Below are positions 8,804 through 9,358 of a DNA stretch of 64,000 bases, one piece after another. The DNA comes from Escherichia coli (GTDB taxonomy: Bacteria > Pseudomonadota > Gammaproteobacteria > Enterobacterales > Enterobacteriaceae), in the NCBI RefSeq assembly GCF_045037415.1, contig NZ_CP173438.1, one strand, 5' to 3'. A program made the position numbers and the translations under genes. The notes below the pieces were generated by a model that worked only from the letters and a program-made list of their open reading frames with translations, was not told the DNA's origin and ran no database searches. Within the stretch, counting starts at the first letter, position 1, and every line of letters begins with the position of its first letter.

Positions 8804-9358
8804 TTACGACTTCGTGACATATCCGTGCTCATCACAAACCCGCCCCGCGATTACAATTAACTGAAATATTTCATCGACCATTTCGTTGTAATCGCATAAC
8901 GCTCGTGGAAATGAGTCTTCGGCCATCCAGCTTGAGTTTGCGTCCTGAAGTTGCTCTTTATCCCAGTCAGAGTACGGGACTTTATCTCTGATGCGGCGAA
9001 CGTATTTTTTAGCCTCGAGTTGATACTGGCCTGCCGAATTAATAAACGAGAAATTCATGCCGCTTTTATCCGCTTCTTTGGCTTGCGCCACCAGCGTTTC
9101 CAGTTCAGACACTTTCTTCATTGCCGCTTCTGCATCAAACTTATCTTGCGATATCAGGTTATTAATTTGTTTCGCTGAAATCATGACTGCCAGAGAGTAG
9201 TAGTGGAATGTTTTCCCTTTCGCAAACGCATCGTCTTTATAATTTTCCTGGGTGTAATATTTATCCATTTCGTTAATGGTATTACCCAACGCTACGGCAG
9301 CATCAATATAACTCACCGCCACGCCATCAATAGGTTGCAGCGCAGGCATTAACGCCAC
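8804..9358 (-). CDS. Hypothetical protein (no signal peptide; start uncertain, GTG 9358 or ATG 9349)
   Basis: 184-codon ORF between porin and fdhD; weak RBS; no recognised domain. Confidence 0.45.
   Translation of the reverse strand: MALMPALQPIDGVAVSYIDAAVALGNTINEMDKYYTQENYKDDAFAKGKTFHYYSLAVMISAKQINNLISQDKFDAEAAMKKVSELETLVAQAKEADKSGMNFSFINSAGQYQLEAKKYVRRIRDKVPYSDWDKEQLQDANSSWMAEDSFPRALCDYNEMVDEIFQLIVIAGRVCDEHGYVTKS

Follow-up and report, generated by a model that had tools for sequence, protein, structure and literature searches.

The 184-codon open reading frame downstream of fdhD as a probable remnant of the lipoprotein gene yiiG in Escherichia coli

YiiG of Escherichia coli K-12 (351 aa; WP_001295677.1) has been described as an 'uncharacterized lipoprotein' (PMC11742677) and carries the PGAP product name 'YiiG family protein'. 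A search of the literature for yiiG as a whole word found no study characterising the protein, intact YiiG, used as a query against PDB sequences, retrieved no solved structure with detectable similarity, and a search of NCBIfam with intact YiiG gave a match to lipoprotein LppK below threshold and nothing more. The K-12 protein begins with a lipoprotein signal peptide that includes the lipobox cysteine (MKRNLLSSAIIVAIMSLGLTGC), and intact YiiG, both in K-12 and in strain AVS0542, matches the Pfam family DUF3829 in one stretch that covers profile positions 2-285 of 285 (346 bits). AVS0542 keeps rhaM, a porin gene, frvABXR, and a gene for an intact YiiG of 347 aa. The gene upstream of intact yiiG in AVS0542 (locus L007, 8409..10601) is not fdhD; it encodes a large 'hypothetical protein' (WP_000382017.1), and adjacency of fdhD and yiiG is thus not universal in E. 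coli.

Mutations in yiiG have been recovered under antibiotic selection. In a mutational-scan study, yiiG start-codon and promoter mutations were enriched under several antibiotics in the laboratory (PMC11742677); its supplement gives 27 occurrences of a start-loss mutation (ATG to ATT; position 4080364), classed as 'Multi-drug' and antibiotic-selected, and two mutations annotated as 'promoter' (4080334 and 4080339) were likewise antibiotic-selected. These mutations map to +3, -28, and -23, respectively, where the K-12 bases are G, C, and C, as listed; the K-12 yiiG promoter and start region lies at about 7035..7065 of locus L003.

The open reading frame and its likeness to YiiG

The window analysed here, a 64,000-nucleotide stretch of E. 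coli DNA, contains an open reading frame (ORF) of 184 codons next to fdhD, as the preliminary description had reported; the ORF lies downstream of fdhD, at a distance of 88 bases from the fdhD stop codon. The features of the ORF and of its upstream flank are as follows.

8804..9358, minus strand: probable yiiG pseudogene remnant, 184-codon ORF (Pfam, alignment to K-12 YiiG, PGAP pseudogene annotation)
8806..8804, minus strand: TAA, terminal stop of the ORF
9358..9356, minus strand: GTG, candidate start, within the repeat GTGGCGTT
9347..9349, minus strand: ATG, candidate start, arisen by a C-to-T change at 9348
9439..9437, minus strand: TAA, in-frame stop upstream of the ORF
9403..9441, minus strand: terminator-like hairpin of fdhD, between the fdhD stop (9446..9448) and the remnant

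The length of this ORF alone is not beyond chance; the window contains 49 ORFs of at least 200 aa, several of which overlap longer ORFs on the opposite strand, and, on the plus strand, the remnant is overlapped by short ORFs (47-75 aa). It is homology to yiiG, and not ORF length, that indicates derivation from a real coding sequence. While the preliminary description had seen no recognisable domain in the product, this view is refuted by a match to Pfam DUF3829 (PF12889) of 166.1 bits (cut-off 26.8; E=1.6e-48). The match consists of two broken stretches, the better of which covers profile positions 158-282; in total, about 59% of the profile is retained, in two pieces with a gap of 45 residues between them, such that the product scores above the profile cut-off without forming a full-length, continuous DUF3829 domain. 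A search of the remnant ORF against NCBIfam returned no family.

The ORF occupies the position of yiiG in K-12, as the preliminary description had stated, with W3110 showing the order rhaM, frvABXR, yiiG, fdhD, and alignment to W3110 yiiG supports the earlier suspicion that the gene is not intact but survives as a truncated or diverged remnant. Relative to K-12 YiiG, residues 1-138 and 45 internal residues are missing, and the last 6 residues (DYNSLR) are replaced by 22 unrelated ones. Remnant codons 1-162 correspond to YiiG residues 139-185 and 231-345, and codons 163-184 are not yiiG; hence, 162 of the 351 YiiG residues survive, 156 of which are identical to K-12 in the residue alignment. 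A full-length match to an intact family of equal size, named beforehand as the outcome that would speak against a remnant, was not obtained. The ORF therefore resembles K-12 yiiG in its locus, directly downstream of fdhD and on the same strand, and in the Pfam family of its product; unlike K-12 YiiG, it lacks the annotated promoter positions, the Shine-Dalgarno sequence (SD), the native ATG, and the lipobox LTGC.

This remnant is already known, in that PGAP files it as a pseudogene, and it is an ordinary feature. A 1101-base stretch around the ORF is found with 100% identity in the E. coli SK1144 chromosome and, used as a query, has at least a partial match in 5424 of 5426 complete E. coli genomes. 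The gene order in SK1144 is rhaD, rhaM, carbohydrate porin, DUF3829 pseudogene, fdhD, fdoG (the last encoding the alpha subunit of formate dehydrogenase and labelled fdnG by PGAP), and exactly these 555 bases are flagged by PGAP as 'incomplete; partial in the middle of a contig; missing N-terminus'. A 'missing N-terminus' pseudogene flag is also found in Nissle and in the ST131 strain JJ1886; the three PGAP pseudogenes (DAECLI1_RS23550 in SK1144, EUJ32_RS21885 in Nissle, and P423_RS22440 in JJ1886) have the same 555-bp coordinates relative to fdhD. The JJ1886 remnant is identical to that of the window over the 483 coding bases compared; the Nissle remnant differs by 3 nonsynonymous changes and has ACG, not ATG, at codon 4.

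Deletion junctions at the yiiG locus

Comparison with K-12 and AVS0542 places three junctions in the remnant, at the following positions.

9351..9358, minus strand: junction of a 478-bp 5' deletion, one surviving copy of the 8-bp direct repeat GTGGCGTT
9210..9219, minus strand: junction of a 135-bp internal deletion, one surviving copy of the 10-bp direct repeat AAGGGAAAAC
8804..8872, minus strand: foreign 3' tail, codons 163-184 (EIFQLIVIAGRVCDEHGYVTKS) and stop, from alignment to the AVS0542 locus L007

K-12 has two copies of GTGGCGTT 478 bp apart: the first precedes the yiiG ATG by 56 bases, and the second lies at codons 139-141. The 478-bp deletion thus spans -56 to +422 relative to the K-12 yiiG ATG, removing codons 1-138 and taking with it the SD (TAAGG), the ATG, the signal peptide with its lipobox, a Pro/Ala-rich linker, and the beginning of DUF3829. 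The annotated yiiG promoter positions (-28 and -23) fall inside this interval and are therefore lost as well; promoter loss rests on the annotation used in PMC11742677, and the loss of SD, start codon, and signal peptide, like the three junctions themselves, is read directly from the aligned sequences. The GTG 'start' of the remnant is accounted for by the first three bases of the surviving GTGGCGTT repeat.

With regard to the internal deletion, K-12 has two copies of AAGGGAAAAC 135 bp apart and the window has one; 45 codons (G186-E230 as aligned) are taken out, and, as 135 bp is a multiple of three, the reading frame is kept. At the 3' end, yiiG-derived sequence stops at …GTCGATGA (8871), and from about 8870 downward the window is the reverse complement of the region located just upstream of the frvA start in AVS0542. 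The deletion of frvABXR (about 4.8 kb) thus clipped the last six yiiG codons and fused the tail to yiiG codon 346. Two of the three deletions are flanked by short direct repeats.

In our reading of these junctions, the ORF is very probably what is left of yiiG, a lipoprotein gene of the DUF3829 family, without function and open over 184 codons only by accident. A 478-bp deletion between GTGGCGTT repeats has stripped yiiG of its expression and export signals as well as codons 1-138, a 135-bp deletion between AAGGGAAAAC repeats has shortened it in frame by 45 codons, and deletion of frvABXR has sent the frame 22 codons into the inverted frvA upstream region, where it ends at a TAA. From this loss we infer the absence of a stable, functional product. 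In terms of annotation, the ORF should be treated as a yiiG pseudogene and not as an orphan gene; the biological weight of this point is small, and the locus serves as an example of the extended but misleading open frame that can remain after repeat-flanked deletions, one of which has a length divisible by three.

The translation signals that are left are poor. GTG 9358 and ATG 9349 had been proposed as the sole start candidates, which was borne out near the 5' end of the ORF, and the weak SD noted at both was reproduced by duplex energies of +0.6 and -1.5 kcal/mol, respectively (pairing of the 20 bases upstream of each start with the 16S rRNA 3' end); the same calculation gave -3.8 kcal/mol for K-12 yiiG, -5.1 for the adjacent porin, -7.7 for fdoG, and -8.4 for rhaM. 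The reported lack of a signal peptide also holds, as the N-terminus of the remnant has no lipobox and its first basic residue is K33. Among the alleles compared, ATG at 9349 is found only in the window and JJ1886, and all others, K-12, Nissle, and GPEC505 among them, have ACG (Thr) at this position; on this comparison, the ATG is the result of a lineage-specific C-to-T change at 9348.

With regard to transcription, the hairpin at 9403..9441 (-13.9 kcal/mol; z = -3.4 versus shuffles) is followed by a U-rich tract (UUAUUCAUUU) and is likely the fdhD terminator; it was not called by a consensus terminator scan. As it lies upstream of the remnant, transcription passing from fdhD into the remnant would need to read through it. 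A consensus promoter scan found no σ70-like minus-strand site upstream of the remnant, a negative result that is weak since the same scan also finds no minus-strand site upstream of K-12 yiiG and hence misses the promoter of that gene.

Distribution among E. coli genomes and alternative readings

The 5' deletion junction is identical in GPEC505, AST262, A1_136, and ETEC6334, and the O25b:H4-ST131 strain MB1159 shows 100% identity across the 91-nt 5' junction. The combinations of lesions differ among strains.

A1_136: 5' deletion present, internal deletion absent; frvBXR present (frvA lies beyond the compared stretch); no other lesion
ETEC6334: 5' and internal deletions present; frvR present and native yiiG 3' end kept; no other lesion
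GPEC505 and AST262: 5' deletion present, internal deletion absent (135-bp segment kept); frv deleted; frameshifts
Window, Nissle, JJ1886, and Z1323CEC0015: 5' and internal deletions present; frv deleted; no other lesion

The frameshifts are independent of one another (GPEC505: -1, within an A7 run; AST262: +1 C), and both alleles are annotated 'frameshifted'. The 135-bp deletion covers the site of the GPEC505 frameshift, which is one reason why the frame looks intact in the window lineage. Substitutions private to remnant alleles comprise 9 nonsynonymous and 5 synonymous changes (omega about 0.46), as compared to 2 nonsynonymous and 6 synonymous changes private to intact alleles (omega about 0.09); the contrast is not significant (one-sided Fisher p=0.09), and its direction is that expected under relaxed constraint. 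Junction queries against complete E. coli genomes gave the following counts; a 44-nt query, which cannot seed on undeleted DNA, was used for the internal junction, as a 91-nt version merged pieces and was dropped.

5' deletion junction, 91-nt query: 1465 of 5426 genomes (27%)
frv deletion junction, 91-nt query: 1164 of 5426 genomes (21%)
internal deletion junction, 44-nt query: 691 of 5426 genomes (13%)

The yiiG deletion junctions occur in all combinations with or without frvABXR (loci L002, L004, L005, L010, and L011). A1_136 and ETEC6334 resemble the O157/MFDS haplotype and Z1323CEC0015 the K-12/AR0069 haplotype. At least three SNP haplotypes, also known from intact genes, carry identical junctions at 9351..9358 and 9210..9219; this sharing of junctions between backgrounds suggests either that deletion recurred at the short repeats or that the junctions were spread by recombination.

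This distribution bears on an alternative that we regard as unlikely, though less so than the other alternatives discussed below, namely that YiiG loss has been recurrent and positively selected instead of representing neutral decay; the ORF itself would still be dead under this alternative. The multi-drug enrichment reported in PMC11742677 makes the question of adaptive loss worth a look, and the window lineage, like Nissle and JJ1886 (ST131), might have lost yiiG in a way that was not neutral. If this were true, the novelty would lie in yiiG loss being adaptive and not in the ORF; natural loss is common and would possibly be tied to antibiotic selection. Substitutions private to remnant alleles comprise 9 nonsynonymous and 5 synonymous changes (omega about 0.46), as compared to 2 nonsynonymous and 6 synonymous changes private to intact alleles (omega about 0.09); the contrast is not significant (one-sided Fisher p=0.09), and its direction is that expected under relaxed constraint.

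A second alternative, that the remnant yields a shortened, cytoplasmic DUF3829 fragment with residual or new function, translated from GTG 9358 or ATG 9349 on transcripts that arise by fdhD read-through or from a weak spacer promoter, appears highly improbable on the sequence features at hand. The frame runs for 184 codons without interruption and was preserved by the internal deletion, but sister alleles carry frameshifts, about 59% of the domain is left with a 45-residue gap inside it, and the tail is inverted non-coding DNA. A putative TATAAA hexamer can be read directly at about 9371-9376, upstream of the 5' junction; against this, deletion has removed not only the annotated promoter positions but also the SD, the start codon, and the export signal. 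While an ATG has been gained in the ST131-type lineage, it appears to be confined to a minority of alleles, with at most 413 genomes being at least 99% identical over the 91-nt 5' junction versus 691 with the internal junction. Finally, remnant alleles of different haplotypes show low pairwise pN/pS (0.10-0.31), but comparisons between intact genes give 0.04-0.26, and the low values among remnants are inherited from intact haplotypes. Purifying selection on the remnants, considered as an explanation of the low pN/pS, was rejected, as most of the differences represent haplotypes common to intact genes; these values are neither evidence of constraint nor positive proof of neutrality.

The least probable alternative, marginally behind an expressed fragment, is that this DNA has a role other than coding, either as a long fdhD 3' UTR or sRNA source or as a regulatory spacer for the divergent porin promoter: the segment does lie directly downstream of fdhD, past an imperfect terminator, and its 3' tail is former frvA/porin promoter-region DNA, but Rfam searches gave no match to the ORF region, whether 6500-11500 was scanned with E up to 1 or the entire window at the gathering score, promoter-like and terminator-like sites showed no excess over shuffles, and segment length differs between strains through large deletions, which argues against a constrained RNA.

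The adjacent porin and other features of the window

The gene on the far side of the remnant from fdhD is intact.

7056..8450, minus strand: RafY-type carbohydrate porin, 464 aa, intact (Pfam Porin_8, E=8e-155)

This porin gene sits between rhaM and the yiiG remnant, from which it is separated by a spacer at 8451..8803. In AVS0542 (L007, 458..2774), the porin gene and frvABXR form a divergent pair; the porin is missing from K-12, which has about 180 bp in place of about 1.8 kb, and the window lineage lacks frvABXR. The porin may be the former outer-membrane partner of the cryptic frv PTS, now left as an orphan. In the porin/frvA spacer (about 8740..8800, minus strand), TTTTGTGAAT occurs twice, about 30 bases apart (TGTGA-N6-TATCA, CRP-like); this pair is possibly a regulatory site that was once shared by divergent porin and frvA promoters.

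On the other side of fdhD, the SECIS of fdoG (11055..11113, plus strand; 84 bits) was found at the in-frame TGA between the two parts of the fdoG ORF (10473..11060 and 11109..13523), and the fdoG 5' UTR (10304..10502, plus strand) gave a match to the Rfam FdoG1_thermometer below threshold (32 bits versus a gathering score of 50). Three matches to naRNA4 (REP-derived CssrE) above the gathering score lie on the minus strand (5658..5820 and 39763..39834), two of the three in tandem between rhaA and rhaD. Elsewhere in the window, CsrC, Spot 42, ES222, STnc370, and an rrn operon were observed, all standard E. coli features.
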